From positions 1,056,001 to 1,120,000 of the forward strand of contig OZ242029.1 of assembly GCA_965205015.1 (NCBI GenBank): a stretch of DNA of 64,000 nt. The letters run 5' to 3'. The stretch's first letter is position 1. Each line of letters opens with the position of its first letter. The notes below the pieces were generated by a model, which saw nothing but the letters and a program-made list of their open reading frames with translations, ran no database searches and was not told the DNA's origin. Source of the stretch: Candidatus Poribacteria bacterium (GTDB lineage Bacteria > Poribacteria > WGA-4E > WGA-3G). The position numbers and the translations under genes are program-made. This document shows positions 30,199 to 54,600 of this stretch, in pieces.

Positions 30199-30243
30199 GA
30201 TGGCGAATTTAAAAAGTGAAAAATGGGATGTCCTCTTTTTCGT

Positions 30244-30763: not shown

Positions 30764-31135
30764 ATGGGTTATGTCTATATCTTGACGAATAAAGCGATGC
30801 CGGGTTTGATAAAAATTGGACAAACTGCTCGAACCGTCCAAGAACGAGTAGACGAACTCTATACAACCGGCGTTCCAATAGCATTTGATATTGCTCACGA
30901 GTTTGAGTGTGAGAATCATGAGCAACTTGAAAGTCAAATACATAGGGAACTTGAGAGACATCGTTTTAATAAAAATCGAGAGTTTTTTGAATATTCAGCG
31001 GATGAGGCTTTTCAAGTGCTACAAAGACTTGTTAACTCCAGCTGGCGAAAGCATACATCACATTTTTTGACGCGTTTCAGGAAAAAAGCTGATTCGGTAG
31101 TAAGTAGAATAGGGCGTAAATCATCACCTGAATGA
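30764..31135 (+). CDS. GIY-YIG nuclease family, T5orf172 type
   Basis: MGYVYILTNKAMPGLIKIGQT..ERV.EL..TGVP...E..IH..L...R....REFF; AAGGAG RBS. Confidence 0.9.
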   Translation: MGYVYILTNKAMPGLIKIGQTARTVQERVDELYTTGVPIAFDIAHEFECENHEQLESQIHRELERHRFNKNREFFEYSADEAFQVLQRLVNSSWRKHTSHFLTRFRKKADSVVSRIGRKSSPE

Positions 31136-32640: not shown

Positions 32641-32651
32641 GGAGTTTCTAT

Positions 32652-33533: not shown

Positions 33534-33572
33534 CCTACTTTTGAGTTGCGGCATATCTATGGTGAATTCTTC

Positions 33573-34793: not shown

Positions 34794-34856
34794 GAAATAC
34801 GATTCATTCCATGCCAGCATTTTGTATTCGTTGCGAGTTAGATCGGGTTTGAGAAT

Positions 34857-35849
34857 ATGATAGAAAAACACTTTAATCGGTACGGGCAAGAATCGGAAGA
34901 GCACTGGGTTTCGATCTCCGACGTGATGGCGGGGTTGATGGTTATCTTTCTCTTCGTTGCGATCAGTTACATGTTGAACGCCCACCACACAACAAAGCAA
35001 ATTATTGAACATGAGAAAAATATAGAGACCCTCCTTGACGATTACAAGAATTTGAAGGACAAATTAGCGAAAGCTTTACAAACTGAGTTTCAAGGCAATC
35101 CGAATAAAAAGAAGCAATTTGAATCAAAGTGGAAAGGGTATCTGAATATGGATACACTGACCATCGGCTTCAAACAGCCCTTCCAGGTGGGTAGCAAAAT
35201 CGTTCCAGATGAATTTAAAATTTACTTAGCGGATTTCTTCCCACGATATATTGAGATCCTAACGGAAGCTGATTATAGAGAGGAAATTGAGGAAGTCCGT
35301 ATCGAAGGGCATACCTCCAGCGAGTGGCAGGATCAAGTGCCTATTGATGTCGCTTTTATGAATAATATGGAGTTATCGCAAAATCGTGCGAGAAATGTCC
35401 TTGACTATGTGCTGGCAATAGACAATCCCAAAATATCTCAGAATAAGATATGGCTGAAGAAAAAAGTGACAGCAAATGGATTATCTTCGAGTCATCTCAT
35501 CCGGGATTTAGTTGAGAAAGATTCACTGGAACCCACCAATCCTTACGCCATCATCTCAGAGGAAACAGAAATTGAGGAATTCATCGTGAAGTCTGTGCAT
35601 AAGCGACTGCTCCGTGAAATTCCGAACTGGCAAAGGAAGCCAGACATTGATAAAATGGATATAATAAAGAGCGTTAGTGATTTTTTTAAAATAAAACCGA
35701 AACCAGAAGCCATTGAAAGAGTGATTAGTCTTCTTTTGGAGGACAGAGAAGCCTCTCGGCGTGTTGAATTTCGAGTTGTCACAAAATCTGAAAAGGTTAT
35801 TGAGCGCGTAAAACAACTTATGGAGGAATTTAACACGTCGACGGAATAA
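34857..35849 (+). CDS. zorB: ZorB-like OmpA/MotB protein
   Basis: EEHWVSISDVMAGLMVIFLF (conserved TM Asp), FFPRY, IEGHTSS.W, NMELSQNRA, SRRVEFRV. Confidence 0.88.
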   Translation: MIEKHFNRYGQESEEHWVSISDVMAGLMVIFLFVAISYMLNAHHTTKQIIEHEKNIETLLDDYKNLKDKLAKALQTEFQGNPNKKKQFESKWKGYLNMDTLTIGFKQPFQVGSKIVPDEFKIYLADFFPRYIEILTEADYREEIEEVRIEGHTSSEWQDQVPIDVAFMNNMELSQNRARNVLDYVLAIDNPKISQNKIWLKKKVTANGLSSSHLIRDLVEKDSLEPTNPYAIISEETEIEEFIVKSVHKRLLREIPNWQRKPDIDKMDIIKSVSDFFKIKPKPEAIERVISLLLEDREASRRVEFRVVTKSEKVIERVKQLMEEFNTSTE

Positions 35850-36020
35850 AGTCTATTTGTTTGGAGCATTTTCCCTTGACATTGAGCAAATGTATAAGGA
35901 GAGTTTTAGTGATTTTAAATATAATACCTGTTTTCTTATTTGCTGTCATTTTGGTGCTATAGAGTCAATACCCTTCGCACGGAAGTAAATCTATTATATG
36001 GAGATGAAAAGGAAATTTTG

Positions 36021-37769
36021 ATGAACAAACAGGCAGTTCTCTGTTCTTTAGTTTTCGCAATGTGCGTCTTTTGCGGTTTAGTGCCGATCCCTGCTTCCGC
36101 GCAAGGCATCCTTCTCGCCCAACAGGTGTTTCGGAAACACAACAAGACGCTCCAACGCGCGGATGTCCAAGAAGTCTTGCCACAGGTGCTGGAAGGATTA
36201 AAATCACCAGACACGCAAGCTCTTTTAAATCCGCAAACTATCAATATCGTCATCAATGACCCGGATCTCTTGCCGATATTTATTCCGGAGATAGAACCGA
36301 GGTTTGTGGCACTGCTGCAGCGGGATCAGGAACTCAAGAATTTCCTGAGGGATCCGCCGGTGCAAAGATTGCTTCAGAGTCCAGCGGCAATTGATGCCCT
36401 TGCCGAGCTGTTAGGGGTCAGTGCCCAGCGACCGCCAGACTTGCCTGCACAACAAATCTACAATCAAGCAATTCATTCCGTCGTATGGATAGCAACACTC
36501 GGGGATAACTGGTTCGGTAAGGGAAGTGGCGTTGTGATTGACAAGACACGTCGACTTGTCGTTACCAACGAACATGTCGTCCGTAACACTGAATTGATAT
36601 CTGTGTTTTTTCCGTTTAGACAGAACGGACGCTTGGTAGGAGATGAAGGGTTCTATTATGAGAATTGGGAATGGCTTGATCAGCGCGGTTTTCATGCTGA
36701 CGGTCGGATCGTCGCGAGAAGTATGAGGAATGACCTCGCAATCATCCAACTTGATCATCTCCCAGCAGCAACCCACGAAATTAAGCACGACTTTAGCAAA
36801 AACGTTGAAGATGGCATGCAGGAACGTGATAAGGTCCATATCTTGGGGAATCCGGGGAAGCAGTTGTGGCATTGGATGCCGGGCACTTTTGTAGGCGATG
36901 GGCGAAATTGTTTACCGAGCAAAGGCGATTGCTTCATCATGGAAGCTGGGGCAAGGGGTGGCAATAGCGGAGGTCCCGTCCTCAACGGGCAAGGGACACT
37001 CATTGGAATCCTGACTGCCGGGGACCGTGAAACCCGGTCATTGGCATCTCCTGCAAGGAACATAAAAGCGCTGCTGAAGACGGTTCCCGCGCATTTGGTC
37101 ACTGTCCCACCCCAACGGACGCATCCTAAACGGGTCTTCAAAATTAGAAACCACACCGGGGTTACTATCCCTTACCAAATCAGGTGGTCACATAACAACG
37201 ATTGGCAACGTTATTCCCTTGAGACGGGTTTTATCAGGACGCACAGGTCAGATGGACAGCAGGTTCCCTCAAATTACCCGAAAATCCAGTTTGATCACAT
37301 CGCCGGGGATCAATGGTTTACAGGGAAAACTTATAGATTGGAAACCGCCCTATTATTGGGTGAGAACAACGGTGGTGCCCCCACGTATATTTTTAGATAC
37401 AACCGTCGGGGAGACAGACTGGATCTGTTCCGTGATGTAAATGCAGCCCCCGCCCTCTCAAAAGTCGTTCCAAAAGAGAATTCCCTGTTCGCCAACTATC
37501 CGAACCCGTTCAACCCCGAAACGTGGATCCCCTATGAACTCGCCGAACCTGCAGAGGTGAACATCGCTATCTATACCACCGATGGGACGCTGGTTCGGAC
37601 GTTGCGGCTTGGACATCAACCCGCGGGTATGTATCAGAGCAAAGATCGTGCGGCGTATTGGAACGGCACAAACGCACTTGGTGAATCTGTGGCGAGTGGT
37701 GTGTATTTTTATACACTCAAAGTTTCCGGCGAATTTACAGCGACGCGGAAGATGCTAATACGGAAGTAA
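36021..37769 (+). CDS. Secreted trypsin-like serine protease with C-terminal FlgD-Ig domain
   Basis: Signal peptide; TNEHVV, NDLAII, GNSGGP triad; NYPNPFNPETWIPY...VASGVYFY. Confidence 0.88.
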   Translation: MNKQAVLCSLVFAMCVFCGLVPIPASAQGILLAQQVFRKHNKTLQRADVQEVLPQVLEGLKSPDTQALLNPQTINIVINDPDLLPIFIPEIEPRFVALLQRDQELKNFLRDPPVQRLLQSPAAIDALAELLGVSAQRPPDLPAQQIYNQAIHSVVWIATLGDNWFGKGSGVVIDKTRRLVVTNEHVVRNTELISVFFPFRQNGRLVGDEGFYYENWEWLDQRGFHADGRIVARSMRNDLAIIQLDHLPAATHEIKHDFSKNVEDGMQERDKVHILGNPGKQLWHWMPGTFVGDGRNCLPSKGDCFIMEAGARGGNSGGPVLNGQGTLIGILTAGDRETRSLASPARNIKALLKTVPAHLVTVPPQRTHPKRVFKIRNHTGVTIPYQIRWSHNNDWQRYSLETGFIRTHRSDGQQVPSNYPKIQFDHIAGDQWFTGKTYRLETALLLGENNGGAPTYIFRYNRRGDRLDLFRDVNAAPALSKVVPKENSLFANYPNPFNPETWIPYELAEPAEVNIAIYTTDGTLVRTLRLGHQPAGMYQSKDRAAYWNGTNALGESVASGVYFYTLKVSGEFTATRKMLIRK

Positions 37770-39610: not shown

Positions 39611-40057
39611 ATGATGAGTGTTGAGAAATTGCTGAAGCTTCTAAGACCAATAATCCCACATTTACCCAGGGCTGTCCAAAGATTTATGCCGGGGGTATTA
39701 GCATTTTTGCCATTAGCGTTCGAGATTGCTAACCTGTTATACAAGCATCGTGAAAAAATAAGGGAGATTATTGGGAATCTGGCTGAAAGCGTTTCAACCC
39801 AGTCGAAAAAAGAAACTGATGGGATCGCAGAGGCTATTCCTCGTCTACCCAGAAGAAGGGCTCGATGGTTAACTCGTCGGTTGGCGTATTTACCATTAGC
39901 ACTTGAAATTGCTAAGGCATCAAATCGAAAGAATATGAAGAGATTTCGTAATTTAACGGCACCACTTCCAGGCAATGTTAAAAGGAAAATAGGTAGGATA
40001 TTACAACGGGATAGTCGTCCTTCTCGTTGGAACTTTTCCCGTAGGTTCCGGCGTTGA
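39611..40057 (+). CDS. Hypothetical basic protein with internal duplication
   Basis: AAGGAG RBS; IPHLPR..LAFLPLAFEIA / IPRLPR..LAYLPLALEIA. Confidence 0.55.
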   Translation: MMSVEKLLKLLRPIIPHLPRAVQRFMPGVLAFLPLAFEIANLLYKHREKIREIIGNLAESVSTQSKKETDGIAEAIPRLPRRRARWLTRRLAYLPLALEIAKASNRKNMKRFRNLTAPLPGNVKRKIGRILQRDSRPSRWNFSRRFRR

Positions 40058-40134
40058 GCGGATTAAATATCTGTCAATCCTTCTGGGACTGGACTACTCT
40101 GTGTATTGCTGGCAGTACAACTGGATGAGTTCTA

Positions 40135-41209
40135 ACGCCTTGTGCTAATTAGATTTTTCATGCGAGGACGAGATTTTTCAGTTCCATAAGGGGTCTGCCG
40201 AGTATATGATTGATGAAATACCCGAGTAAACACGCCCTGAACTTATTACTCATTCGGGTCCGGACGCCCCACTGCCCCATCTACGCACCTGGGAGACACA
40301 AAACTGATCCATCAACTGCCCGATTGTGGTCTCCACACGTCGGTGCAACCGCACTTGAAGTTTCCGAAACGTCTCGGGATATTGTCGTTTCTGGTTGCGC
40401 CGAAGCGTCGGGAGTAAACAGGTGTTTTCGGTCGCTAACACCTCCTCTTGGAGGCTTTCAGAGATATATCCTTTGTCGCCTAAAAGGATCGGATAGCGTC
40501 CGCACTTCACGAGCAGAGGCAATACCTTTCGGTCATCTATATTCGCAGAAGCGATTGCAAAATCAACAGGCACGCCATCAACGATGGTGATCAGATGTCC
40601 ATGAAACCCAAAGAACGTTCCGAGACCTTTCGTGGCACAGGGTCCATAAGTCGCAAGACACCCCGAAGCATCTGCCCACCGTAAGTCAGATGTTAAAGTT
40701 TTCACACGTTTGACATCACAAATCGGTATCGGGAAAGAATCAACAATGAACACGTCTGTTTGAGGCAAGCAGGTCCGCAAGGTCTCTCGGACGACTTCAC
40801 TCGCTGCCATGAGATTTCGCCGTCGTCGATTGAAACGAGATCGCTCCAGCAGAGACGGGAAAAGCCCGCGCAGTTGCTCTTTCAACCGTGGATACCCAGC
40901 ATTTTCGCTATCCGCACCGATATATTCAAGCAGGTAGGCGATCGTGAGAATATCAGCATCTGGGCAATCGGGATTCCGTCCGGGTCTGTGGCATTTGGAA
41001 AATGGGCATCATAAACTGTTTTGATGATCTTCTGAACCACACCTGCGACAGTGAGGCGCGTGTGAGGTTGATTTTTCAGTTGCAACGCATAGCGTTCTAA
41101 AGTAGACTGTAACTCCATCCTTATGCCTCCTTTGGAGTCTGTGTTTACCCCATCAGGATTGCATAAGGATGGACTTATTCAAATACCAAAACTAATTAGC
41201 ACAAGTCGT
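40135..41209 (-). mobile_element. IS982-family insertion sequence with a disrupted transposase
   Basis: TIRs ACGCCTTGTGCTAATTAGATTT (40135) and ACGACTTGTGCTAATTAGTTTT (41209, reverse), 1075 bp; transposase pieces ERSRFNRRRRNL, IVDSFPIP, LLGDKGY, RRVETTIGQL split over 40882-41118 and 40250-40885. Confidence 0.88.
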
Positions 41210-41227
41210 AATGAGAACGAAATTAAG

Positions 41228-44200
41228 ATGTCAAAATTTTTAGAAGGACTGAATCCATCACAACGAGAAGCTGTTACACATACAATAGGTCCCCTCTTAA
41301 TTATCGCCGGCCCTGGCTCAGGTAAAACGCGAACGGTTGTTCATTCTATCGCTTATGCTATAGAAAACGGTGTGATGCCTGAACAGATTTTGGCATTTAG
41401 TTTCACTGTGAAAGCGAGTGAAGAGTTGCGAGATCGGGTGAAAGAGAATGTAGGAGAGGAAAAAGGATCTCTCGTTAACATATCTACATTCCATAGTTTC
41501 TGCCGACAGGTTTTGAGAGAAGATATTGATAAACTTGGTAGAGGCTACGCACGGAATTTTAGAGCATTAGAGGAAAATAATCAGAGAAAAATTGTTAAAA
41601 ATTTAGCGCGCATTAATGAACAGCGGGTCCGCGCCGAGATTGAACATATACAATCTTATAAATTTCCTAACCCTGAAGAGGTTCTTAATTTTATTAAAAA
41701 GTGCAAAGCGAGAGAAATCAGTCCATCTGATGCTGGACCTCACGCCCACGAGTTCCACAGGTCAGAGGACTATATAAAGATTTATGAAAGTTATGAGCAA
41801 TTTCTTAAAACTAAGGGGTGGATTGATTACGAAAACCAGCAGCTTTTTACCGAGGAACTTTTTAGAAGTGTCCCTGAAGTTAAAACCAAATGGCAAAATA
41901 GGTTTGCGCTTATTTTCGTTGATGAATACCAAGACACCGATCCTATTCAATATCGGATTGTAAAAGCTCTGGCAGAATCTCATCAGAATTTGCGTGTTGT
42001 TGGGGATGATGACCAGGGAATTTACGGTTGGCGGGGAGCTGATATCCAGAACATATTAAACTTTGAGAAAAACTATCCAAACGCCAAGGTAATTTCGCTC
42101 GGGCAAAATTATCGTTCAACACAAAAGATAGTTGAGATATCTCATGCTTTGGCAGAATTTAATCCAGATCGGCGAGATAAGGACCTGTTCACGCGGAACT
42201 TTGAAGGCGAGAAAGTAAAATATCTCCACTGTGACAATGATGAGGAAGAGGCTGCTACTATCGCCTCTTTTATCCAGCGGTCTATTGATCAAGGCAATTG
42301 GCGGCCAAGCGATTTTGCAGTGCTGTACCGTACGAATAAACAAGCATACGCTTTGAAAACAGCACTTAGTGATTTAGATATCTCCATCATGACAATTCAT
42401 AAATCTAAAGGGTTAGAATTTCCGAATGTATTTGTTACAGGAATATGCCGAGACTTGTTACCACATTATCACAATCGCGACGAAAAGAACTGGGGTGAGG
42501 AATTGCGGCTCCTTTACGTCGCAATGACTCGCGCGAAAAATTGGTTATGTCTATCTTCCTATGAAGAAGAAGGGAAATTCCAGCATAAGCGTGGACGGTC
42601 TCCTTTTTTGGAACGTGGTTATATTCCTTCCCGTCTCCTTGAATCTGTAGAGACACTTGAAAGCGTGATGATTCCTCCGAGTCCTCCCGAAATGACTGTT
42701 CCGGTAACTACCAGAGAAACAGCAGAATATATTGAACCTCTCCCTGAGAAACTACTTGGGGATGGTATGACTGTCCTGGGGATAGATCCTGGTATCCAAA
42801 ATGTGGGTTGGTCAATCACTAAAAAATCACCAGTTGGCTACACTGTTCTTAGATCTGGCACCCAGATTACCACTGGATGGCAAAATACCCTTGTACAAAC
42901 AGAACGCACAATCAATAAACTGATAACTTTATATCATCCCGATGCAATTGCAGTTGAAAAACTTGAGGGGGCTACAGAGGAGTGGTTCCGTTACGTCGCA
43001 GGATGTGTAGCCACCATAAGAAATATTTCCGATCAACACAAAATTGAATGCCAACTCTATACGCCGCAGCATGTTAAATACATCGCTACGAACAACAGAA
43101 ACGCATGTAAGTTGGATGTCCAGAAGGGGGTCATGCGAATATGTAACCTCCAGCAAATTCCAGAACCGCACCATTCTGCGGATGCAATTGCGACAAGCCT
43201 CTGTTACCTCAGGAATTACCTGAACTCTTCCCGTTTTGAAGGCAACAAACGAAAACAGGAACACTATGAGGTGGGTTGTGGTTACTTGGATAAGAAGCAC
43301 TATGAAGCAGCGATTGATACATTCAAGGAGACAATAAACATAGATCCTGTTTATACGCAGGCATACTATGGATTGGGGCGAGCGTACCTTGCACAAAATG
43401 ATTTGGATGGAGCGGAAACTTCAGCTGCAACAGCCCTAAGGCTTGCGGAAAATAATCATCCTGATTCGCAAAAACTTTTGGACGCTATAGAACGGTACCA
43501 CTCTGGTTGCAATTTCTTGAACAATAGCGAATGGAACATGGCGATTGATAAATTCCAAGAATCTATAAACTTAGGACCCACTTTTACTGAAGCACACTGT
43601 GGACTTAGTAGGGCATACTTGGAGGTAGGTAATCTTGAAGCAGCCAAAAACGCAACCGAAGAAGCCTTAAGACTCAGAGATGATTATCTACCTGCTCGGG
43701 AACTTTTGAATGATGTAAAAATGAGATCCTACTACAAAGGCAGAACTTACTTTCACAGTGAGGAATACAATCAAGCAATTCCTGAATTTCAAAGGGCAGT
43801 GAAAATTGGACCAGACTTTAAAGAGGCACATCGCTATCTTGGTGAGGTTTACCTTAAACTAGGAGATCTTGAAACCGCAGAAAAAGAAGCAAGAGAGGCT
43901 TTGAGAGTTGACGCTACCTATGAACGCGCCAGTGTACTGTTAAGAGAAATAAAGCAAAAACATAAAGAGCACGGCGATGACTATAGGAAGAAAAAAATGT
44001 TCACCCAAGCACTAAAATCCTACCAACAAGCACTACGTATTGACAATAAATACAAAGAAGCCTATCACAATCTCGGCATCCTTTATCGAAGGATGAAAAA
44101 ATACGACAAAGCAATAGAGGCTTACCAGAAGGCAATAGACATCGATGAAAGATCTCACGTAACCTATAGCGATTTCAGTTTCGTTTACCGCGAAATTGGT

Positions 44201-45199
44201 GAGCCCGCGAAGGCAGTGGACTTACTAAAGCGTGCAATCGCAACCAAACCAGATTACCAAAGGGCATACTACAACCTTGCTGAAACTTACTTTGAAATGA
44301 AAAATTTACAAGCCGCAAGTGAAACACTTCTTGAGTCTTTAAGGCTTGATGCCGACGACCAAGACACTCTTAAACTACTAAAGAATATACAGAATGTCTA
44401 TTTAAAACAAGGACGCAATTACTTTAGACAGAATAACCTTGAGGCAGCAGAAATTTCTGTGAAGGCAGCCTTAAGGCTTGGTTCTGACTATCAACGCGTG
44501 CGTAGACTTTGGAATGATATAAAATCAGGTTACTACAAACAAGGTCTCGCTTGCATAGAAAACGGCATGTATGCTGCAGCCATAGGCCTTCTCCAGAAAG
44601 CAGTAAAAATGGATCCGAGGTTTAAAGAAGCACACTACTCACTTAGTGAAACTTACTTTAAGATGGGAGATTTTGAAACTGCCGAAGAAAAAGTAAGACA
44701 GACATTATGGATTGATCCAAACTATGAACTGGCATCCTGCCTTTTGATATCTATAAAAGAAGAATATTACAAGCGTGGTTTGACATCCCTTGAACAGAAT
44801 GAATGGAAGGCAGCAGAAAAATTCGCGAAAGAAATATTGAGAATTGATCCAAACTATGAACCAGCATATAGACTCTTAAAGCAAGCGTGTTACGAACTGG
44901 GCCTCGCCCATTTACAAAAGGGAGCACATTCCAAAGCTATAAGTCCACTTCGGAAAGCAAAGGATATTGATCCAAATTGTGAAAGAACGCGCTACTCCCT
45001 TGGATTTGCCTACTTCAAATTGGACAGGTTAGAAGAGGCAAAACTGGAGATCAAAGGCGCATTATCCATTCAACCCAATTATTCTAAAGCCCGTGAACTT
45101 CTGTCAGAGATAAATGATCCCCGTAATTGGTTGAAATTAGGCAGGGCGAAGGTGCAACGATGGACGCGTCGGATAATAAACCATATCGGGTTCAGTTAA
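41228..45199 (+). CDS. UvrD/PcrA-like helicase - RuvC nuclease - TPR array fusion
   Basis: LNPSQ, AGPGSGKT, VDEYQD, VGDDDQGIYGWRGA, QNYRS, TIHKSKGLEF, LYVAMTRA; RuvC VLGIDPG/AIAVE/YTPQHVK/HSADAIA; many TPRs. The ORF-track start at 41123 lies inside IS982. Confidence 0.9.
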   Translation: MSKFLEGLNPSQREAVTHTIGPLLIIAGPGSGKTRTVVHSIAYAIENGVMPEQILAFSFTVKASEELRDRVKENVGEEKGSLVNISTFHSFCRQVLREDIDKLGRGYARNFRALEENNQRKIVKNLARINEQRVRAEIEHIQSYKFPNPEEVLNFIKKCKAREISPSDAGPHAHEFHRSEDYIKIYESYEQFLKTKGWIDYENQQLFTEELFRSVPEVKTKWQNRFALIFVDEYQDTDPIQYRIVKALAESHQNLRVVGDDDQGIYGWRGADIQNILNFEKNYPNAKVISLGQNYRSTQKIVEISHALAEFNPDRRDKDLFTRNFEGEKVKYLHCDNDEEEAATIASFIQRSIDQGNWRPSDFAVLYRTNKQAYALKTALSDLDISIMTIHKSKGLEFPNVFVTGICRDLLPHYHNRDEKNWGEELRLLYVAMTRAKNWLCLSSYEEEGKFQHKRGRSPFLERGYIPSRLLESVETLESVMIPPSPPEMTVPVTTRETAEYIEPLPEKLLGDGMTVLGIDPGIQNVGWSITKKSPVGYTVLRSGTQITTGWQNTLVQTERTINKLITLYHPDAIAVEKLEGATEEWFRYVAGCVATIRNISDQHKIECQLYTPQHVKYIATNNRNACKLDVQKGVMRICNLQQIPEPHHSADAIATSLCYLRNYLNSSRFEGNKRKQEHYEVGCGYLDKKHYEAAIDTFKETINIDPVYTQAYYGLGRAYLAQNDLDGAETSAATALRLAENNHPDSQKLLDAIERYHSGCNFLNNSEWNMAIDKFQESINLGPTFTEAHCGLSRAYLEVGNLEAAKNATEEALRLRDDYLPARELLNDVKMRSYYKGRTYFHSEEYNQAIPEFQRAVKIGPDFKEAHRYLGEVYLKLGDLETAEKEAREALRVDATYERASVLLREIKQKHKEHGDDYRKKKMFTQALKSYQQALRIDNKYKEAYHNLGILYRRMKKYDKAIEAYQKAIDIDERSHVTYSDFSFVYREIGEPAKAVDLLKRAIATKPDYQRAYYNLAETYFEMKNLQAASETLLESLRLDADDQDTLKLLKNIQNVYLKQGRNYFRQNNLEAAEISVKAALRLGSDYQRVRRLWNDIKSGYYKQGLACIENGMYAAAIGLLQKAVKMDPRFKEAHYSLSETYFKMGDFETAEEKVRQTLWIDPNYELASCLLISIKEEYYKRGLTSLEQNEWKAAEKFAKEILRIDPNYEPAYRLLKQACYELGLAHLQKGAHSKAISPLRKAKDIDPNCERTRYSLGFAYFKLDRLEEAKLEIKGALSIQPNYSKARELLSEINDPRNWLKLGRAKVQRWTRRIINHIGFS

Positions 45200-45425
45200 T
45201 CCTTTGGAACTTGCGAATCAACTTCCCCGCACGCTGATTCAGCAGACAGCAGCAGTTTCTCACAATTGGGATGCTAATTCGCAATCCAACCATAAAGGAA
45301 TAGTTGTGCATAAAAGTCCGTTTAGGTATTTTCATGATGAGGCAGAATTGTTTGACTACGTAAGAGATCATACCTCTACTATTTTTGGTGAGGAAAATGA
45401 CCACAGGGGCGTGATTTTGAAGGGG

Positions 45426-45490
45426 TGTACTGCCTACGGTTTTTTAGACCACTCCCTAAAACAAGATTGTGCTACAATACAATCTCACTG
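45426..45490 (+). mobile_element. Isolated IS3-family left end
   Basis: TGTACTGCC..TTAGACCACTC..AAGATTGTG.TA.AAT..CTCA.TG closely matches 59418-59482, which precedes an IS3 orfA fragment. Confidence 0.65.
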
Positions 45491-46214
45491 GTGCGTTTCA
45501 ACGAATAATGATGGAATGTAAGTTCAATTCTTACTCGGTAAACCCAACATCCGTATATCTCACTCTAATGGCGTTGCTGGAAACGCTAACGTGGGAATCA
45601 AGAGGAAATGGCGCACTCCCAAGAACATAGGCAAAACTAAAGAGAGCAATCCCTTTAGTGTTCGGAATTGGAGCGTCCGACAGAACTCACATGGGTAAGC
45701 GAAAGTCGAATGCCTGAAAAATCCCGTCATGTCGAATACAATAGTCTTGAGCGGAAACGCAACAGTTGTAGTGCTATAAGGTGTAGCCACAAGTTACTAC
45801 ATCAATTGTGGAAATGCGGAGCATTCCCCCACAAACTGGAATAAATAGCACAAGGCACAATCTGTGTCCATCGGGACATAGGGTAACCCTAAATGAGTTG
45901 CGAAGTCTCTATACAGGAAGTTAGACAGAACCTAAACGGACTCAAGTAGTCCGATAGGTTGAGGAGATTAGGTAGTCTCGTGTGAGACGAGCATAATCAG
46001 GTTTACTGCTTTGAAATACTTACAGACCTCGTATCTCAATGGAGAAAATCACGCTTGCGTGTCTCCTTTGGATGTCATAAGTAAAGAAAAGTGGTCTATA
46101 TGACCTAACGTGTATAACACCACAGTAAACTGGAAGGTTTCATGTGCGGTGAAAGTCGCACGCACGGTTTGGAAGGGGAACCGTAGAGGGGCGACCCTCT
46201 ACGGCTACCTTAAC
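45491..46214 (+). ncRNA. ORF-less group II intron (probably degenerate)
   Basis: 5' GTGCG; domain V-like TGTGCGGTGAAAGTCGCACGCACGGTTT (~46137-46170); domain VI hairpin CCGTAGAGGG-gcga-CCCTCTACGG then CTACCTTAAC 3' end; no RT ORF. Confidence 0.8.
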
Positions 46215-46304
46215 TTTGCTAATTTTGTGTCCAAATTAATATTGGCACTTCAGTTGCGTGGATATGCAAACGGAGACTCAGGTCTCAGAAATTCCAATCA
46301 TAAA

Positions 46305-46919
46305 ATGAATAACCAACTTTTTCCAGAAGATCGATATGAAATAGAAGATATTCCAATACGAGACGGAATGTTATGTCTCTACCCATACCTTTTCTCGCCG
46401 GAAGAACGAGAAACCTTTTTTGCCCAACTCAGAGATCAGGTGGATTGGCAGCAAGAGGAAATCAAATTGTATGGCAGATCCATTCCGTTACCTCGTTTAA
46501 CCGCATGGTTTGGCGATGAAGGGAAAACCTATATGTATTCAGGCATAAACGTTGTGCCTGAACCGTGGACTCCAACTTTGTTAAAAATCAAAGACAGAAT
46601 AGAGGAGGTTTCAGAAATAACATTCAACAGCGTCTTACTTAACTACTACCGAAATGAACGTGACAGTGTGTCTTGGCACAGCGATGACGAACCCGAACTG
46701 GGCAAAAACCCGACGATTGGCTCGGTAAGTTTCGGGGATGTCAGGACCTTTCAACTCAAACACAAAACGGACACATCGCTAAAGATCAGCAGAGACCTGC
46801 CGGATGGCAGTTATCTCCAAATGGCTGGGAGTACCCAACACCATTGGCTACACCAGATACCAAAGCGGACCCGAAAAATAGGTTCGAGGATCAATTTAAC
46901 GTTCAGAGTCATATTATAG
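46305..46919 (+). CDS. AlkB-family 2OG-Fe(II) dioxygenase (ALKBH2/3-like)
   Basis: PRLTAWFGD, FNSVLLNYYRN, WHSDDE, W.HQIPK, RINLTFR. Confidence 0.92.
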   Translation: MNNQLFPEDRYEIEDIPIRDGMLCLYPYLFSPEERETFFAQLRDQVDWQQEEIKLYGRSIPLPRLTAWFGDEGKTYMYSGINVVPEPWTPTLLKIKDRIEEVSEITFNSVLLNYYRNERDSVSWHSDDEPELGKNPTIGSVSFGDVRTFQLKHKTDTSLKISRDLPDGSYLQMAGSTQHHWLHQIPKRTRKIGSRINLTFRVIL

Positions 46920-46951
46920 ACGCGCGGATGTTCCTTAAGGAAATCTAAAGT

Positions 46952-48388
46952 ATGATAGACCCAATTGTGATTGTCTATAGCAGCATTGTCGCTCTTATTA
47001 TCGGAGGACTTATAGGTGGGTTTCTCTATAAATCCATGTCTCGTCAACAGGACATAATATATACTACCCTTGAATTAGAAGAAGAACGCCACCGTCGCAA
47101 GGAACTTGAAAGTGCTTTATTGCAGGCCCGGCAGGAAGTCGCACAGCTCTCTCGCGAAAACAAACACATTTCCGGCACATTGACGCAAACCTCGCAACGA
47201 AACGAGCAATTCTCTAATACGTTGACACAAGAGAACCACGCCATTGCTTTAGAAAAAGAACGCGAGAATCGCGATAAAGTGGAAAACGCCCTACAGCAGA
47301 CACAGCAAGAAATCAAAAAAGAACGCGAGAACCGCGAGAGACTGGAACGTGCCGTTCGCCAGACACAACAGAAAGTAGAACAGCTCTCTCGCGAAAAAGA
47401 ACAACTCTTCGGTGCATTGACACAAGAGAGCCGGTATCGCGAGACCGTTGAAAGAAAATTGGCATTTTCCGGTACCTCTGGCTATCCTATCCTTCTCAAC
47501 GAGTTGTATGCCGCAAAACATCTAAAAACCGACATCCAAAAACGCGACTATCTTCAAGAGTTGCAAGGGGCTGCCGGGGCGTTATGGCATGAGTATCAAG
47601 GCACAGATATTTCGCCAGACTACTCAAGAATGGACTATCAAGAAGCATATCTGCTCTGCTACTTTTTGCCATATTCTCAACCTGTCCCTTACCTGCTCAA
47701 CCAGTTGGTTCTCAGGAAAGAGTTCCCCTATCAACTTCCCGAAACAGGCGTATTAACTGCCACCTTCTTTGGATGCGGGCCGGGGCCAGAGCTACTGGGT
47801 CTCATGCGTTATCTGCGATCCTTTCAAGCGTCCCTGTGTATTTCCGCTGCCTTGTTGGACAGGGAGACTTGGGCACATAGCAGACGTATTGTGTTTCAGC
47901 ATTTATTAGATCGCGCGTGGGATCCAGAGAACTACGATATCCAGGAATTCAAGACAGACATCGCAGGAAGCTCAGAAGTTTTTTTACCTGCCGATTCAGA
48001 AGAATGGGTAAAAAGGTCGGAGTTAATCGTCATTCAAAACTGCCTTAATGAAAGACGGAATGCCACGTCCGAACGGTCAATAGAGAACCTGAAGTGCCTT
48101 GTAGAGAAAATGAAAACTGGAGCGGTGATGCTAATCATTGAGCGTGGTACGTATGTTAGAAAATTACTGGGCGAATTCCGCTACATATTGCAAGAAGAAT
48201 TCAGGGGTCGCATACACGTTAGCAGCAAAATAGAGGGTGTTGAAAAAATTACACCAATCCTTGAGGTGATTCCTGAAGAACTGGAAGTTAATTTCTTGAG
48301 GGAATTGCAGGCCAACGCCATCAACTCCGTGGAATTTACGTGGATCGCCATCTCCAAGATGCCGTCAGGAACTGAGTCCCCTGTCTAA
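46952..48388 (+). CDS. N-terminal TM + repeated coiled coil + SAM-dependent methyltransferase-like domain
   Basis: TM IVYSSIVALIIGGLIGGFL; ER..R..LE.A..Q.QQ repeats; AYLLCYFLP, FFGCGPGPELLG, IQNCLNE, LIIER. Confidence 0.7.
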   Translation: MIDPIVIVYSSIVALIIGGLIGGFLYKSMSRQQDIIYTTLELEEERHRRKELESALLQARQEVAQLSRENKHISGTLTQTSQRNEQFSNTLTQENHAIALEKERENRDKVENALQQTQQEIKKERENRERLERAVRQTQQKVEQLSREKEQLFGALTQESRYRETVERKLAFSGTSGYPILLNELYAAKHLKTDIQKRDYLQELQGAAGALWHEYQGTDISPDYSRMDYQEAYLLCYFLPYSQPVPYLLNQLVLRKEFPYQLPETGVLTATFFGCGPGPELLGLMRYLRSFQASLCISAALLDRETWAHSRRIVFQHLLDRAWDPENYDIQEFKTDIAGSSEVFLPADSEEWVKRSELIVIQNCLNERRNATSERSIENLKCLVEKMKTGAVMLIIERGTYVRKLLGEFRYILQEEFRGRIHVSSKIEGVEKITPILEVIPEELEVNFLRELQANAINSVEFTWIAISKMPSGTESPV

Positions 48389-48500
48389 ATCAAGAGTGCG
48401 ATATAATACGCAGTATTTGGGGAGAGGACCTCTGTTGAATTTAAACAATATTACTTGTCTGAACTTTACCGATGTTGACGATACAAACGAAAAAGGAAAT

Positions 48501-51500
48501 ATGAATATGCACCAGAATCCTTTGTCAGAGTTTGAGCTAGGTCAGATTGTTTTCTTGAAAGCCGATCCCTCTACTCGGGGGGCTGTTGTAGCGATCCTGC
48601 CGGGTACCCCTGAGAACCGAATTAACGTTTTTGTTGATGGAAATGTTCATACTTTTTATCCATCTCAGTTGCAACTTGAGGTTCAAGATAGTTCTCGTGT
48701 CTTTTCATGTGATGACTTTCATGCTTACCTAACGGCACTCCAAATTCGGTACCCCGGTTTATCAACCTTATATTCGCTCAATGCAGCGCGGGTTGACTTT
48801 ATCCCCTATCAATACCGACCCGTTCTGAAATTCATCAAAGCGGACTTACCAAGGCTGCTCATTGCCGATAGTGTTGGTGTTGGTAAAACGATTGAGGCTG
48901 GTCTGATCTTACGCGAACTACAAGCACGTAGCAATATTGAATCTGTTCTCATTATATGCCCGCGTCCCTTGGTGGCTGAGCAAAAGTGGCAGCGGGAGAT
49001 GAAACGATTTGACGAAAATTTTGAACATTTGGACGGAGATAAGTTGCGATATTGTATCAATGAGATGCACCTTGACGGTGAGTGGCCAGAACAATACCAG
49101 AAGGTGATTCTCCCGTATTCATTATTGAATAACACACTCCTTTTCGGTCCAGGAGGGGGTCGTAAACGAAAGCGTGGCAAAGGGCTTTTAGACCTGGACC
49201 CACCGCCGCGCTTTGATCTGGTCATCGTTGACGAAGCGCACCATATCCGAAATCAGGGGACAGCCAACCACGAAGCAGTCCGGTTTTTCTGTGAAAATGC
49301 GGAAGCAGCGATATTTCTTACAGCAACCCCTATTCAGCTCGGCAGCCACGACCTATTTGTCCTGCTTAATGTTCTCCGCCCAGATCTGATTCTGGATGAG
49401 GAGAGTTTCAATCACATGGCGGAGCCAAATCACTTCATTAATCAAGCGGTTAACGCTGCACGGGCACAAGAGAGCGATTGGAAGCAGATCGCAAAGGAAG
49501 CTTTTGACCAAGCAGGTGCAACCGACTGGGGGCAATCAATTCTCAAGGCTAATCCTGAATTCAAGCGAATTAGAAATCAGCTTGCTGGGAGGCGTATTAC
49601 CCCTGAAGATCGCGTCCAACTCATCACCGATATAGAGGCACTCCACACATTTTCAGGAATAATCAATAGAACCCGCCGTCGCGATATCGGTGAGTTTACT
49701 ATTCGCAAATCACAGACCGTACCGGTGAAATTGACGACAGAGCAGGATGAACTTCATGAAGCACTCCTTGAAACGCAAGCGGAAATATTCCGCAGCTTAC
49801 ACGGCAATCAGAGTGTTAACTTTATGATGACAACGCTCCGTCGACAGTTGGCAAGTTGTTTGCATGGGCTCGAACCCCTCCTTGAGGATATTTTGAACCG
49901 CCGCCTTGACGAACTTGAATGGACGGAAGCTGATGCGATTGAGGCAATTCCCTCATCGGAATTAGTTACACATATCCGAGAACATGTGCAAGTGCTTCTT
50001 GAGAGAGCGAAGAATCTTGATTCAGAAGACTTGAAACTGGAAGCACTTCGGACAATTGTTCGTGATCGGCAAAACCTTCCGAATAACAAGGTTATGATTT
50101 TCAGCAGCTTCCGTCACACACTTTTCTATCTGCACGCACACCTAATGCGCGACGGATTTCGCGTTGGATTGATTCATGGGGGCACCCCGGACGAGGAACG
50201 CCTTGACCTCCGGAATCGGTTTGAAAAACCCCGTTCAGACCCCGACAGTCTTGACTTGATGCTCTTTTCGGAGGTCGGCTGTGAAGGGTTGGACTACCAG
50301 TTCTGTGACTGCATCGTTAACTACGATCTGCCGTGGAACCCAATGAAGGTTGAACAACGTATTGGTCGTATTGATAGGAGGGGACAAAAGAGCGAGAGCG
50401 TTAGCATTATCAACCTGATTACACCCGGAACCGTTGATGCAGATATTTATGAACGGTGTCTCCTTCGTATCGGGGTGTTTGAGAGCGCGTTAGGTGGAAA
50501 CGAGGAAATCCTGAGTGAAATCACAACGGAATTACAAGACATCGTCCAGAATCACGGGTTGACTCCAGCACAACGGAGAACCCAATTGGAAGTGTTAGCT
50601 GATAGCAAAATCGGATTGGTGTTGGAACAGGAAAAACTTGAGGCACAGCAATTAGACCTGTTTGGACTGCGCTTTCCTGAGGATAAGATGGAGAGAGAGG
50701 TCGAGGAAGCGTCGAGTTTCTGGTTATCTTCGGACTCAATACAGCGGCTCGTCACGCGTTATCTTCACCAAAAAATCGGGACAGCGCAAGAATTCATCCT
50801 CGGTGAAAAACCCCTTAAAACCCTTCGACTTTCTGAGGAAGCGCGGAATACCTTATTGGGTGATTTTCAGCAGTTCCCTCGGGAAAGGACACGTGTCTAT
50901 CGTGACTGGGAAAAATGGTTAAAAGGATCGGAGCAGCATTTATCTATAACCTTTGAGGCTGACTGTGCCACAGGGAATCCTGACGTTGTATTTATCATGC
51001 CGACCCACCCATTCGTGAAACAGGCAGCAGCGGTGTTAAACACAGACCAAGAAGTCGTTACAGCACTGAAGGTCAGAACCAACAAGGTGCCTCCGGGACG
51101 TTATGAGTTTGCTATTTACCAATGGCGCTTTCTTGGGATTCGGGAACATTTAGTCCTAAAACCGATTGCTTTATCAGAGGCGTTGGGGCCGCATCTTAAC
51201 GACCTACTTGAAAGGGCAGAAGATGGTGATACACAGGGAAGCCAAACCCCAATCCAGAAAGAAGCGTTAGAAAAAACGCACCAGCACCTATGGGCTGAAG
51301 CACGGGACAAACATCAGGAACGCATACAGGCGTTAGCAGATTACCGTAAAGAGAGTTTGTCAACTAGTCATCAAAAACGGGTAATGCTACTTGAAGATAA
51401 GATTGCACAAGCAACCGATCCAAGAATTCAACTGATGCGACAGAGCGAACTTGACAACGCTGAGTCTGATTACCGGCGGCGTATCCAAGTGTTTAACGAG

Positions 51501-51563
51501 GCAATGGCAAAAGCAGATGTTACCGCGGAACCGGTGGCGTATGGGATTCTGGAAGTGGAGTAG
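48501..51563 (+). CDS. SNF2-family helicase (RapA/DrmD-like)
   Basis: PYQ, LLIADSVGVGKTIEAG, IVDEAHH, LTATP, SEVGCEGLD, NYDLPWNPMKVEQRIGRIDRRGQ. Confidence 0.92.
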   Translation: MNMHQNPLSEFELGQIVFLKADPSTRGAVVAILPGTPENRINVFVDGNVHTFYPSQLQLEVQDSSRVFSCDDFHAYLTALQIRYPGLSTLYSLNAARVDFIPYQYRPVLKFIKADLPRLLIADSVGVGKTIEAGLILRELQARSNIESVLIICPRPLVAEQKWQREMKRFDENFEHLDGDKLRYCINEMHLDGEWPEQYQKVILPYSLLNNTLLFGPGGGRKRKRGKGLLDLDPPPRFDLVIVDEAHHIRNQGTANHEAVRFFCENAEAAIFLTATPIQLGSHDLFVLLNVLRPDLILDEESFNHMAEPNHFINQAVNAARAQESDWKQIAKEAFDQAGATDWGQSILKANPEFKRIRNQLAGRRITPEDRVQLITDIEALHTFSGIINRTRRRDIGEFTIRKSQTVPVKLTTEQDELHEALLETQAEIFRSLHGNQSVNFMMTTLRRQLASCLHGLEPLLEDILNRRLDELEWTEADAIEAIPSSELVTHIREHVQVLLERAKNLDSEDLKLEALRTIVRDRQNLPNNKVMIFSSFRHTLFYLHAHLMRDGFRVGLIHGGTPDEERLDLRNRFEKPRSDPDSLDLMLFSEVGCEGLDYQFCDCIVNYDLPWNPMKVEQRIGRIDRRGQKSESVSIINLITPGTVDADIYERCLLRIGVFESALGGNEEILSEITTELQDIVQNHGLTPAQRRTQLEVLADSKIGLVLEQEKLEAQQLDLFGLRFPEDKMEREVEEASSFWLSSDSIQRLVTRYLHQKIGTAQEFILGEKPLKTLRLSEEARNTLLGDFQQFPRERTRVYRDWEKWLKGSEQHLSITFEADCATGNPDVVFIMPTHPFVKQAAAVLNTDQEVVTALKVRTNKVPPGRYEFAIYQWRFLGIREHLVLKPIALSEALGPHLNDLLERAEDGDTQGSQTPIQKEALEKTHQHLWAEARDKHQERIQALADYRKESLSTSHQKRVMLLEDKIAQATDPRIQLMRQSELDNAESDYRRRIQVFNEAMAKADVTAEPVAYGILEVE

Positions 51564-51615
51564 CGTGCATAAAGATTTATATATTGTTTTCCTGTAGGTT
51601 AAGGAGGGATTTATT

Positions 51616-54600
51616 GTGTCAAGTGCGCAATTTGAACATATTCGGAGCATTAGACAGGATTTTCATCAAGGGAGTAAGCGGCTTAAAGAGAGTTCAAACA
51701 ATTCAATCAAGACGCTCGCTGATGATCTTTACAACAAGCATACGCATTTTATCTTTGAATTGATTCAGAACGCTGAAGACAACACATACGAAAAACAAGG
51801 GACTTATCCGCCTTATATCTCCTTTCAGTTAACAAAAACCGATCCGACTTGCACCCCTGGATCTAAGGGCGCGTTGATTATCCAAAATAACGAGATTGGC
51901 TTTCAACGCGATAATGTGGACGCTATTTGTGCAGTTGGTGCGACTACAAAAGAACAGGGACAAGGATATATTGGTGAGAAAGGCATAGGTTTCAAGTCTG
52001 TTTTTCGTGTAACAGGAAATCCTCATATTTTTTCTAATGGTTACCATTTCTGTTTACCCGAGTATGATGCGGAAACTGGGCTTGGATACATTGTACCACA
52101 ATGGATTGATAGCCCGCCAGAAGACCTATATCTCTCTGAAACTCATATTATTCTGCCGTTAACGAAGCCGGATTTTGGATATGAGACGATTGAGCAGATG
52201 CTACAAGATATTGAGCCAGAGACTCTTCTTTTTCTCTCAAAACTTGAAGAAATTCGAATTGGAACCGATACTGGAGATAATCTGACTATTTTGAAAGATA
52301 GTACAGCAATACCAGAGGTTGCAGTCATAGTTGAAGGTAATAAGCAGGGGAAAGTTTTCTCTAAGTCGGATAGTTTCTTGGTGTGCACCAAACGTTTTGA
52401 TAGACCTGTAGAGATTCGTCATGAGAAACGAAACGGAATAGAAAATCGAGATATCTCAGTTGCATTTCCATTGGATGAAAAATCAACTGCGATTGGAAAA
52501 ATTTTTGCCTATCTTCCTGTCCGATCGGATACCGGATTCCCATTTTTAATTAACGCCGATTTCATTCTACCCAGTTCGCGTGAAGATATTCAGGATGTAC
52601 CTTGGAATTACTGGTTGATGGACTGTGTGGCAAATTTGGTTACATCTGAATTATTACCGCTTCTAAAAGAAAAGCGACTTTTAGGCGTTAACTTTCTTGA
52701 AGCACTTGCCAACCGACTGAATAATCTTGTGTATGATGGAGATAGTTTGTTCTATTCTATTTTTAGGGGAGTTTGTAAAGCCCTGAAAAACGAGGCGTTA
52801 CTCCCTACCAGCGATGGCGAGTTTGTATCTGCGCGAAACGCCGCACTCACGCGTTCCGATGCAGTTAGAAACCTGATCACCCCCGCTCAATTACGCATAC
52901 TTTTGCGTTCTAACGCTGATCGTAATGTTCCACGCAAATGGCTATCTGCTGAAATCACGCTAGACCGAACTCCATATCTCCGTAGCTACCTCATGGAGAT
53001 TCTTGGAATTGAAGAAGTCACACCTGATATGTTTGCCCGTAGGCTCACCAAAGAATTCCTTTCCGCACAGACTGACGAATGGTTTGTCAAATTCTACAAA
53101 TTTTTATCCGAACAGCCCGCATTGTGGCGTTCCAACGGTGCCGTTCTAAGAACCAAACCGATCTTGCGTCTCCAAGATGGAAGGCATGTGAATCCACCTC
53201 AAGAAGATTCCGTTCCTACGGCCTATTTGTCACTTGATAAGACTCCTGACACTTCATTGCCGATTGTGAAATGGGAAATTACCCAAGATAAAAGTGCCTA
53301 TCGGTTTCTAAGAACGTTAGGCGTTCAAGAATGCGACATCGTTGCGGAAGTCATTGAAAAGGTGCTCCCAAGATACAAGAACAAGATGTCGCCAGTTCCC
53401 ATTAACGAGCATCTACAGGATTTTGACAAAATTCAACGGGCATATAACACAGATTCAATAGAGAAAAAAGAGCAGCTTAAAACAATGCTGCGAGAGACCC
53501 CTTTCATTCGGGCAGAGGAATCGGACAAAGATGGAAATGTCTACTTTGAACCCGAGTGTCTCTATTTTGGCGATAATACTTTGCGTTCATATTTCGCTAA
53601 CAACCCTTCATGTGCCTTTGTTGATCTTGATATTTATCCGCCTTCTGCCAAATCGTTGTTCGGCGATTTAGGGATTTTGGGTTCTGTACGAATTCACAGG
53701 GAACCGGAGGATTCGCAAGGGTACGTTACGATTGTGAATGAGCGTGGAAACCACCAGAGAGGATGCTTCGGGTTTGATTATGGTATCACCGTTGATGGAT
53801 TAGAACACGCTCTCAACACCCCAACTCTTGAGAAAAGTTCTTTCATTTGGAATCACATCGCTATTCCTAATGCAGATTGCATTAAAGGGTTTGTGGAAAA
53901 GTCCAGTACCCAAACTTATAGTAAGAGTTCGTTTGAGGAGATTGAATCCTATTATTTTGGACGTTTGTTAATTGATACTGTATGGCTTCCTGATTCCGAT
54001 GGAAACATGCACAGACCGAGTGAAATTACTCTTGATGATCTTCCCGCTTCATTCAAGAAGGATGAAGAATTGGCAAAACAACTTGGTATGCCAATTAGCA
54101 AAACTCGGATAGTTGACAAGGTTGCCCCAGAAATTGGTGTATCTTCGGAGATTCTCAATGGGATCGTTAATGCCTCACCGGAAATGCTTCAGCAAATTGA
54201 ATCACTGTTACAGTTAGGACCTGACTTTGGTCATTTGCCACCCTCTCCGTCCCCCCTTTTCGATGGCTTGTCGTCCTCTCAAACTACCGCTTTCCCAGTG
54301 CGTTCTGTATCGAACCCGGCGCGACGAAAAAAAATGATTCTCGCAGAACTTAAAGAGTCACCGGACCAGGAATATGTTGAAAAAAGAAGGAGTGTTCGGA
54401 CGACGCGGAGTAAGATCGATCCTAAAACGTGGCTCAGTGCTGAATATATGAATGATGACAGTCAAATTATATGCCAAATCTGCCAAGAGGTGATGCCGTT
54501 TAAATATAAGGGCGAAAATTACTATTTTGATGCGGTGGAGATGCTGAAAGGGTACTTCACGAAAGAGTACGAGGCACAATTCTTAGCACTTTGTCCAGAG

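Follow-up and report, generated by a model that had tools for sequence, protein, structure and literature searches.

A single-chain fusion of a UvrD-type helicase, a RuvC-type nuclease and a TPR array in Candidatus Poribacteria

Here, we analyzed a gene at 41228–45199 on the forward strand of a 64,000-nucleotide stretch of DNA (hereafter, the window) from Candidatus Poribacteria (assembly GCA_965205015.1, contig OZ242029.1, positions 1,056,001 to 1,120,000). As judged from its sequence, the encoded protein joins a UvrD-type helicase, a RuvC-type nuclease and a TPR array in one chain, in which both enzymatic centers are intact and conserved. Helicase-nuclease fusions are already known; for the joining of a UvrD-type motor to a nuclease of the RuvC type, however, no description was found in a literature search that left supplements outside its range, and no paper containing both "Poribacteria" and "RuvC" was found either. 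The motor also lacks the 2B subdomain, and this natural loss bears on the current debate over how such motors are switched on. Evolution has made and kept a 2B-less motor, tied to a nuclease and to an exchangeable binding module.

Results

Gene structure and domain organization

The gene lies in a single uninterrupted open reading frame (ORF) of 1,358 codons at 41123–45199 (+). The methionine at 41228 was the start in all 41 aligned homologues (MSK..GLNPSQ). Therefore, 41228–45199 (+) represents the true coding sequence (CDS) of 1,323 amino acids plus a stop codon, which is where a first-pass annotation, made from the letters of the window, had placed it. The 35 codons located 5′ of this methionine extend into the right inverted repeat (41188–41209) of an insertion sequence (IS). 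Pfam and motif residue numbers are given below with the codon at 41123 as residue 1, and all domains described are on the forward strand.

Pfam analysis identified UvrD-helicase (residues 43–319, E 9.9e-81), UvrD_C in two stretches (E 6e-39), RuvC (residues 551–694, E 6.1e-17, 62.3 bits compared to a cut-off of 22.2), and multiple TPR families across residues ~730–1340. Together with an alignment to PcrA and a fold match, this assigned 41228–42661 to an SF1A UvrD/PcrA-type motor composed of subdomains 1A, 1B and 2A. Its motifs were AGPGSGKT (Walker A, motif I; residues 62–69, 41306–41329), DEYQD (267–271), GDDDQ (294–298), QNYRS (328–332), TIHKSKG (424–430) and VAMTRA (466–471), so that the complete SF1A set reported by the first-pass annotation was found in full. 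The motor was followed by the Pro-rich linker that had also been noted (42662–42766, residues 514–548), which contained 7 Pro in 35 residues, was poorly conserved, and was modelled with low confidence; this linker is flexible. The RuvC-type RNase H-fold endonuclease domain was assigned to 42773–43204 from Pfam, alignment and the modelled fold, with the motifs GIDPG (553–557), AVEK (610–613) and HHSADA (683–688), and with the catalytic codons D 42785–42787, E 42956–42958, H 43172–43174 and D 43181–43183. A rigid and near-invariant connector (43190–43270; SLCYLR.YLNSSRFEGNKRKQE) links the final helix of RuvC with the first one of the TPRs. Pfam TPR families and the structure model placed an all-alpha TPR solenoid at 43241–45133, and the model and the sequence placed a basic C-terminal helix at 45143–45187.

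The helicase motifs and the RuvC D/E/H/D residues were invariant in 42/42 aligned family members and in 13/13 loci. An AlphaFold model of residues 36–745 had a mean pLDDT of 72.7 and a pTM of 0.44, with low-confidence segments at 261–271, 292–327 and 488–507; therefore, we make no statement on how RuvC is placed relative to the motor. The model of residues 500–1358 had a mean pLDDT of 86.8 and contained ~33 helices after RuvC, as well as the terminal basic helix.

Support across the domain junctions, a check that the first-pass annotation had set beforehand, was obtained from other sequencing runs. Overlapping contigs of run X4, which belongs to a separate study, showed 0 differences over 40060–43685, 43874–44408 and 44771–45453. 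In addition, single contigs of relatives spanned the region from the helicase through RuvC to the start of the TPRs in runs X5 (DNA, 3,559 nt) and X17 (RNA library, 3,224 nt). RNA-library contigs of runs X15 and X17 covered parts of the gene or of its relatives; DNA carry-over is possible, and this cover is a weak hint of expression. Likewise, no meaning is attached to parts of the window that lacked cover in some runs.

A UvrD-type motor without 2B

At a single point of the query (42377–42382), the alignment to PcrA skipped from residue 376 of the PcrA chain directly to residue 558, indicating that the entire 2B subdomain (~180 residues) is missing from the motor, as is the usual C-terminal tail. 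In the printed alignment, 2B was reduced to a short stub of roughly 0–25 residues in 42/42 members, and the window copy and its closest relatives lacked even this stub, having a 22-residue deletion common only to them. The best known match of the motor was PcrA/UvrD, both by sequence (1pjr, E 5e-95) and by Foldseek (E 3e-28), and UvrD-helicase and AAA_19 were the only NTPase families found in the protein by Pfam. Nevertheless, the protein stayed below the NCBIfam equivalog cut-offs for TIGR01073 (PcrA; 410 bits versus 911) and TIGR01075 (315 versus 1144). The motor carries the conserved SF1A motif set (Walker A, DExQD, III, IV, V and VI), but not the four-subdomain 1A-1B-2A-2B layout. A protein-atlas search with residues 36–760 returned generic UvrD clusters only, with every score below 0.9.

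The 2B subdomain is described as the regulatory domain of the UvrD-type helicase family (PMC13238157). When 2B was deleted by engineering from mycobacterial UvrD1, helicase activity was reported to be gained, whereas excision repair was lost and growth was slowed (PMC13646824, 2026). Since 2B deletion, as described there, unmasks helicase activity and harms cells, a naturally 2B-less motor plausibly needs another brake. By analogy, we infer that the motor of the fusion would be an intrinsically active 3′→5′ translocase or helicase on single-stranded DNA (ssDNA).

The RuvC domain

The RuvC tetrad aligned residue-for-residue to D7/E70/H143/D146 of Thermus thermophilus RuvC, in agreement with the catalytic-type residues (GIDPG, AVE and H.ADA) picked out by the first-pass annotation, and the two sequences differed after the catalytic Glu. 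The modelled domain superposed on solved RuvCs with a TM score of 0.80–0.87 and an rmsd of 1.9–2.5 Å overall; the individual values were 0.87 with an rmsd of 1.9 Å for 6lw3, 0.85 for 7xhj and 0.83 for 4ep4. Therefore, the RNase H fold and the D-E-(H/D)-D tetrad are both present, whereas the protein is not a small stand-alone partner of RuvAB. Consistent with this, the fused domain scored 75.7 bits with NF000711, below the NCBIfam equivalog cut-off of 163. Standalone RuvCs were at most 36% identical to the fused domain, the nearest cellular ones being 30–36% identical. A predicted complex of two copies of the domain (residues 505–668 of alignment A1) scored 0.18 compared to a mark of 0.42, a score from which we draw nothing on dimerization.

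An exchangeable C-terminus

The ~600 residues of TPRs that had been described in the same frame proved to be ~630 residues of TPR helices, followed by the basic tail. Most of the ~33 modelled helices had a pLDDT above 90, and one long helix followed every two or four short ones. The terminal 29 residues contained 7 Lys or Arg, and the RNWL...GF signature was nearly invariant among members with a TPR array of the window type, a label that we applied at ≥50% identity over residues 901–1100.

Identity was decoupled between domains. For the member P0010, identity to the window protein was 92% over the helicase and 87% over RuvC, against only 27–37% over the TPR part, whereas P0101 showed 55% and 59% identity in the core and 65–76% in the first two TPR segments. 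The same decoupling was present in the genome loci. On a quick maximum-likelihood tree of the core (42 rows, none left out; 694 columns; SH-aLRT support only), the window-type label required 8 changes, and 7 of these were forced by well-supported branches. An FGE-sulfatase domain (PF03781) formed the C-terminal end in 6/6 scanned members that were not of the window type. This class was mixed, however, since at least 8 of its 19 members carried FGE-sulfatase and the remainder had divergent TPR-only arrays. Among the 120 proteins listed from the search with the linker and RuvC region as the query (see below), PF03781 was found in at least 21. When the FGE-sulfatase module itself was used as the query, the 120 proteins listed included 31 further fusions and ~38 in which FGE was combined with a caspase domain, and the module was also paired with trypsin plus TPR and with dockerin, cohesin or TonB_C. 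From these comparisons of sequence, the C-terminus is a swappable module that has been exchanged repeatedly, on the core tree no fewer than 7–8 times, also between TPR-only and TPR plus FGE-sulfatase forms.

Range of the family

The linker-RuvC query was searched against proteins of 746–2,377 residues (E≤0.001, 844 candidates) and matched 187 protein clusters. All 120 listed clusters contained the RuvC family and ~110 of them also contained UvrD-helicase, so the full-length homologues that the first-pass annotation had wanted looked for do exist. The remaining ten (767–1,133 aa) had RuvC and TPR, some of them with UvrD_C, and may be cut or split. An exhaustive phmmer search with the same region against 1.84 billion representatives gave 19 proteins at E≤1e-30 with 49–80% identity, which were long or were fragments of long proteins; after a gap, standalone RuvCs followed at E ~1e-13 with ≤36% identity. 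A single-protein scan of genome contigs yielded 2 true relatives, the other 9 loci being TPR-only matches, and alignment of the RuvC region in a scan of metagenome contigs yielded 1 relative and 2 weak RuvC-like matches. The named members were all Candidatus Poribacteria (5 of the 120 listed in the linker-RuvC search, 2 more from the FGE-module search, and the loci L001 and L002); among named records, therefore, the family is seen only in this sponge-associated lineage. Public records label the members "RuvC" or "TPR protein", which obscures their true nature, and the NCBI pipeline names several of them "crossover junction endodeoxyribonuclease RuvC".

Accessory status and the usual chromosomal site

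Next, we searched for RuvC in a sample of 120 genomes from the phylum to which G001, the genome carrying L001, belongs. A match was obtained in 118/120 genomes, with a standalone frame of 159–308 aa as the best one (E 1e-35 to 6e-54), and 2/120 had no match. Fifteen of the 120 additionally had RuvC inside a frame of 800–1,668 aa, with a fused-domain E of 5e-24 to 9e-17, and 7 more contained short additional RuvC-like fragments. A PcrA/UvrD of 727–751 aa and RuvB were both found in 5/5 carriers, with ruvB located ~1 kb from the standalone ruvC in 4/5. Separate ruvC and pcrA/uvrD genes, which the first-pass annotation had proposed to look for, are thus present in relatives, and the fusion is not the housekeeping RuvC of the lineage; for the window genome, this is concluded from its relatives. 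In sum, that annotation had proposed a sensor-helicase-nuclease cleaving foreign DNA that is branched or replicating; this proposal would fall if the gene were an assembly chimera, had no full-length homologues, or were the housekeeping RuvC. None of these was found, and the proposed function is kept below as a conditional reading.

The usual site of the fusion has an AMP-ligase-like gene on one side and an FAD-oxidoreductase gene on the other; farther out are Fe-ADH, a PQQ-propeller protein, a radical-SAM enzyme, an NMT1-type binding protein, a TPR protein and DsbD. The FAD gene was core (113/120 genomes). In 8/8 non-carriers fetched, the flanking genes were adjacent and the fusion gene between them was absent; in some, the gap contained either a lone 70-aa gene or a pair of 70 aa and 163 aa. 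The carriers were scattered over the identity classes of the FAD gene (roughly 5/25, 9/~50 and 1/~30). Patchy carriers and empty sites together indicate that the gene is dispensable and was lost or gained many times. In the genome G019, the copy (L019:5914–12797) was in three pieces of 284, 799 and 221 aa, split by two 426-aa ORFs on the opposite strand and located on another contig than the FAD gene that usually flanks the fusion; two insertions have probably turned it into a pseudogene.

An overlapping gene pair (~163 aa and 70 aa) was located directly upstream of the fusion at L016:6716–7409 and also at L020, L022, L023 and L030. The same pair was present in some empty sites, and it matched no Pfam or NCBIfam family. 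At L018, a different small pair, a clan AA aspartic-protease-like 172-aa gene and an 89-aa gene, occupied that spot, which behaves as a small variable islet.

Other UvrD combinations were also observed in the phylum. A UvrD-family frame of 1,047–1,079 aa was present in 5/5 Poribacteria genomes checked, and the one such frame that was scanned, L115:505–3648 (−), had a DEDD RNase_T-type exonuclease within UvrD_C, at the normal 2B position; this would be a second, apparently core, UvrD-nuclease combination. In G049, L114:813–5654 (+) encoded a 1,613-aa protein consisting of a complete UvrD with the 2B region and ~900 aa of TPRs, with no RuvC. UvrD-TPR fusion therefore recurs in the lineage.

Discussion

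Comparison with known systems

The protein carries the full defining features of none of UvrD/PcrA, RuvC, Gabija, STAND or RecB/AddA. PcrA/UvrD/Rep provide the best sequence and fold match, and motifs I–VI are all present; the fusion differs from them in the absence of 2B and the C-terminal tail, in the added RuvC and TPR, and in the sub-equivalog scores. With the RuvC resolvase it shares the RNase H fold (TM 0.83–0.87) and the D-E-H-D tetrad, but here RuvC is a domain of a 1,323-aa protein and not a ~170-aa dimer encoded with ruvAB. RecBCD, AddAB and AdnAB resemble it in that a UvrD-like motor is covalently joined to a nuclease, although the fold and sequence matches are weaker. Their nuclease is of the RecB PD-(D/E)XK type, and they are multi-subunit end-processing machines without a TPR or FGE module. 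In the fusion, the PD-(D/E)XK family was not among the 25 best of the 38 Pfam families matching the protein.

Among defense systems, the top PADLOC matches were to UvrD models of the GajB type and to the helicase model RTasHel (DRT). Gabija differs in that GajB is described as retaining 2B (PMC10781630) and works with a separate nuclease, GajA, of the OLD/Toprim type. DarH of DarHTG is reported as a UvrD-like helicase that likewise has no 2B and is part of an anti-phage system (PMC13069673). Neither a GajA-like nor a DarT/DarG-like family was found in the neighboring ORFs scanned (PADLOC for 46110–58642 and 45204–45521; Pfam only for the upstream ORFs). STAND/Avs proteins, as described in PMC13581612, share with the fusion a C-terminal TPR or FGE-sulfatase sensor, a nuclease effector in the same chain, and the shuffling of modules. 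They differ in that the NTPase of the fusion is an SF1 helicase rather than a STAND ATPase, and the order of its parts is NTPase-effector-sensor. Thus, the STAND NTPase core is absent, and the exchanged C-terminal repeat or lectin-fold module is present, to be counted as a putative sensor only. The nearest published idea is that of the separate TPR-DUF3800, UvrD and TPR genes reported at some Cas12a2 loci, which combine the same ingredients (UvrD, an RNase H-fold nuclease and TPR); these are separate genes, however, and the nuclease is DUF3800, not RuvC (PMC10910872). By analogy, the fusion would work like the helicase-nuclease kind (RecB/AddA, Hef and the two-protein Gabija), whereas it would be built like a sensor-NTPase-effector receptor.

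Possible function

We propose, giving it an even chance on the sequence evidence, that the protein is a stand-alone, sensor-gated translocating helicase-nuclease directed against foreign DNA of phages or plasmids. The C-terminal repeat or lectin-like module would bind a protein ligand, which may target the enzyme or release it from self-inhibition. The "unbridled" 2B-less motor would then load on ssDNA at forks, gaps or D-loops and move 3′→5′, and the tethered RuvC would cut the branched or unwound DNA that it meets, so that replication and recombination intermediates are wrecked. The patchy distribution, the empty sites, the module exchange, the FGE-sulfatase variants and the island of defense genes in the window are consistent with this proposal. 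FGE-sulfatase, which has a C-type-lectin fold, and TPR are described as sensors of defense-associated STAND proteins (PMC13581612, PMC10907252), and FGS domains are described as C-terminal ligand binders of conflict systems (PMC7159879). A more specific version, which we put forward tentatively, is a new class of single-protein immune receptor-effector that does without a STAND ATPase. In it, the exchangeable TPR or FGE sensor would replace the lost 2B brake, and a phage protein would unleash a processive motor that drags RuvC along replicating foreign DNA. If the fusion is a defense protein, the sensor-NTPase-effector logic of bacterial pattern-recognition receptors would extend to a helicase scaffold.

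Several observations weigh against a role in defense. The fusion was located at one site in 10 of the 12 genome loci of relatives and at the metagenome locus L116 (11/13 in total), and the neighbors of this site are metabolic, so the context is mostly not defense-like. A defense-island context was seen only for the window copy, which is 1 of 14 loci, and at L021, the other displaced copy, three neighbors gave 0 PADLOC matches. PADLOC v2.0.0 models matched residues 36–421 only, namely the helicase part. In viral contigs, 0/80 kept loci matched past residue 499, all being matches to the helicase part. The window-type TPR array had a mean column identity of 72% over 39 members, being conserved like the core and not hypervariable. 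Finally, the FGE module also occurs with the extracellular-looking dockerin, cohesin and TonB_C, and is therefore not specific to immunity.

Alternatively, as the main rival reading and in our view a less likely one, the fusion may serve its host as an accessory enzyme in DNA repair or recombination. In that case, the motor would strip proteins or unwind nascent strands at stalled or reversed forks, RuvC would cleave the junction, and the TPR array would dock to partners in the host, for example its replisome, RNA polymerase or SSB. Archaeal Hef would be a functional analogue of such an enzyme, which would provide a one-chain alternative to helicase-plus-resolvase teams. The conserved position among metabolic genes in 11/13 loci of relatives fits this role, as do the strong purifying selection that acts on the two active sites and the window-type TPR array alike, the closeness of the RuvC domain to cellular RuvCs (30–36% identity), and the several other UvrD-nuclease and UvrD-TPR combinations, which make this a theme of the lineage. 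No partner or immunity gene was conserved adjoining the fusion across the loci of relatives, which also agrees with repair. However, the fusion was absent from 105/120 sampled genomes of the phylum, although only two genomes of the sample lacked ruvC; the empty sites were clean in 8/8 non-carriers examined, and one copy was split by IS. Moreover, a lectin-fold FGE-sulfatase and repeated module exchange are hard to fit to a fixed host partner, and the window copy was relocated into an island of defense-type genes.

It is improbable that the gene is carried as cargo by a mobile element or helps to maintain one, in which case it would serve the spread, homing or stabilization of that element and not the host. 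In favor of this, the start codon lies 18 bp from the end of an IS with 22-nt inverted repeats, the window copy is off the usual site of the family and in low-GC DNA, a group II intron-like remnant lies just downstream, and an X4 contig joint (40102–45456) skips the IS and the gene, although its shorter side has only 30 letters. In contrast, the ORFs scanned next to the fusion included no integrase, relaxase or phage genes, relatives were at the fixed chromosomal site without an IS in 11/13 cases, and none of the 80 kept loci in viral contigs was a RuvC-carrying relative. That the protein is simply the housekeeping RuvC or UvrD of the lineage in fused form, as the NCBI names might suggest, has a negligible chance given the separate, better-scoring RuvC in 118/120 genomes, the position of that standalone gene next to ruvB in relatives, the PcrA/UvrD of 727–751 aa in 5/5 carriers, and the scores below the equivalog cut-offs (RuvC, 75.7 versus 163 bits; PcrA, 410 versus 911 bits). 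An assembly chimera or dead gene is just as readily set aside by the 1,358-codon open frame, the repetition of the architecture in independent assemblies, the junction-bridging contigs of other studies and the invariant catalytic residues.

Neighborhood of the gene in the window

None of the usual flanking genes of the fusion was found within the window. The GC content was 0.40–0.46 around the fusion compared to 0.50–0.53 in the first 30 kb, and judging from gene content, the window copy sits in a defense-island setting. A low-GC (0.40) block at 29164–37769 contained a weak HEPN_Swt1-like ORF, a T5orf172/PDC-S57-like ORF, two unknown ORFs, Zor genes (ZorA2-like, 33546–34793; ZorB2-like, 34857–35849) and a trypsin-like protease. 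The block resembles a type II-like Zorya system in unusual company. Downstream of the fusion, a same-strand gene run (46110–58642) comprised a 2OG-Fe(II) oxygenase, which matched the C-terminal half of the PADLOC CARF_2OG model only, an unknown, coiled-coil-like 478-aa ORF, a DrmD-like SNF2 helicase (48396–51563), and two tandem TmtA (Tiamat)-like GHKL ATPase genes (51616–58642), the first of which ends in an Hfq-like stretch.

The IS element occupied 40135–41209 (−). It was ~1.07 kb long, its 22-nt inverted repeats were 91% complementary, its end was 18 bp upstream of the start codon of the fusion, and it contained two DDE transposase ORFs, 40250–40885 (211 aa) and 40882–41118 (78 aa), both on the reverse strand. 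Run X5 contained a ~3% divergent version of the window locus in the same setting, and a relative in run X5 was without 424 nt of the IS region (40087–40510). The X4 contig that joins 40102 to 45456 omits the IS and the fusion (5,353 nt), and the shorter side of the joint lies at a repeat; it could be a gene-less population variant or a repeat-driven assembly join, and it was not counted as evidence. A 148-aa ORF of no known family was located just upstream of the IS (39611–40057), and a homologue with 45% identity was located 3.4 kb 3′ of the fusion at L002:17641–18141; with 2 of 14 loci, this could be chance.

The region 45491–46214 is a possible ORF-less group II intron remnant, with GTGCG at 45491 and a sub-threshold match to Rfam Intron_gpII at 46139–46214 (28.4 bits versus 40, E 0.003). 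In DNA and RNA libraries alike, short and very deeply covered contigs piled up at 45491–46214, indicating that it is multi-copy in these communities. The 105-aa ORF at 45204–45521 gave no PADLOC model at E≤1. The idea that this ORF and the 2OG-Fe(II) oxygenase ORF are exons split by the intron was dropped, since in-frame joins were obtained at many boundary choices. Lastly, a ~70-nt repeat was found at 45420–45490 and 59412–59483 (79% identical) with a TACAAT/TATAAT-like box, and in other X4, X15 and X17 contigs AAAGGAG and ATG came after the repeat, in the manner of a strong promoter-leader in common use.

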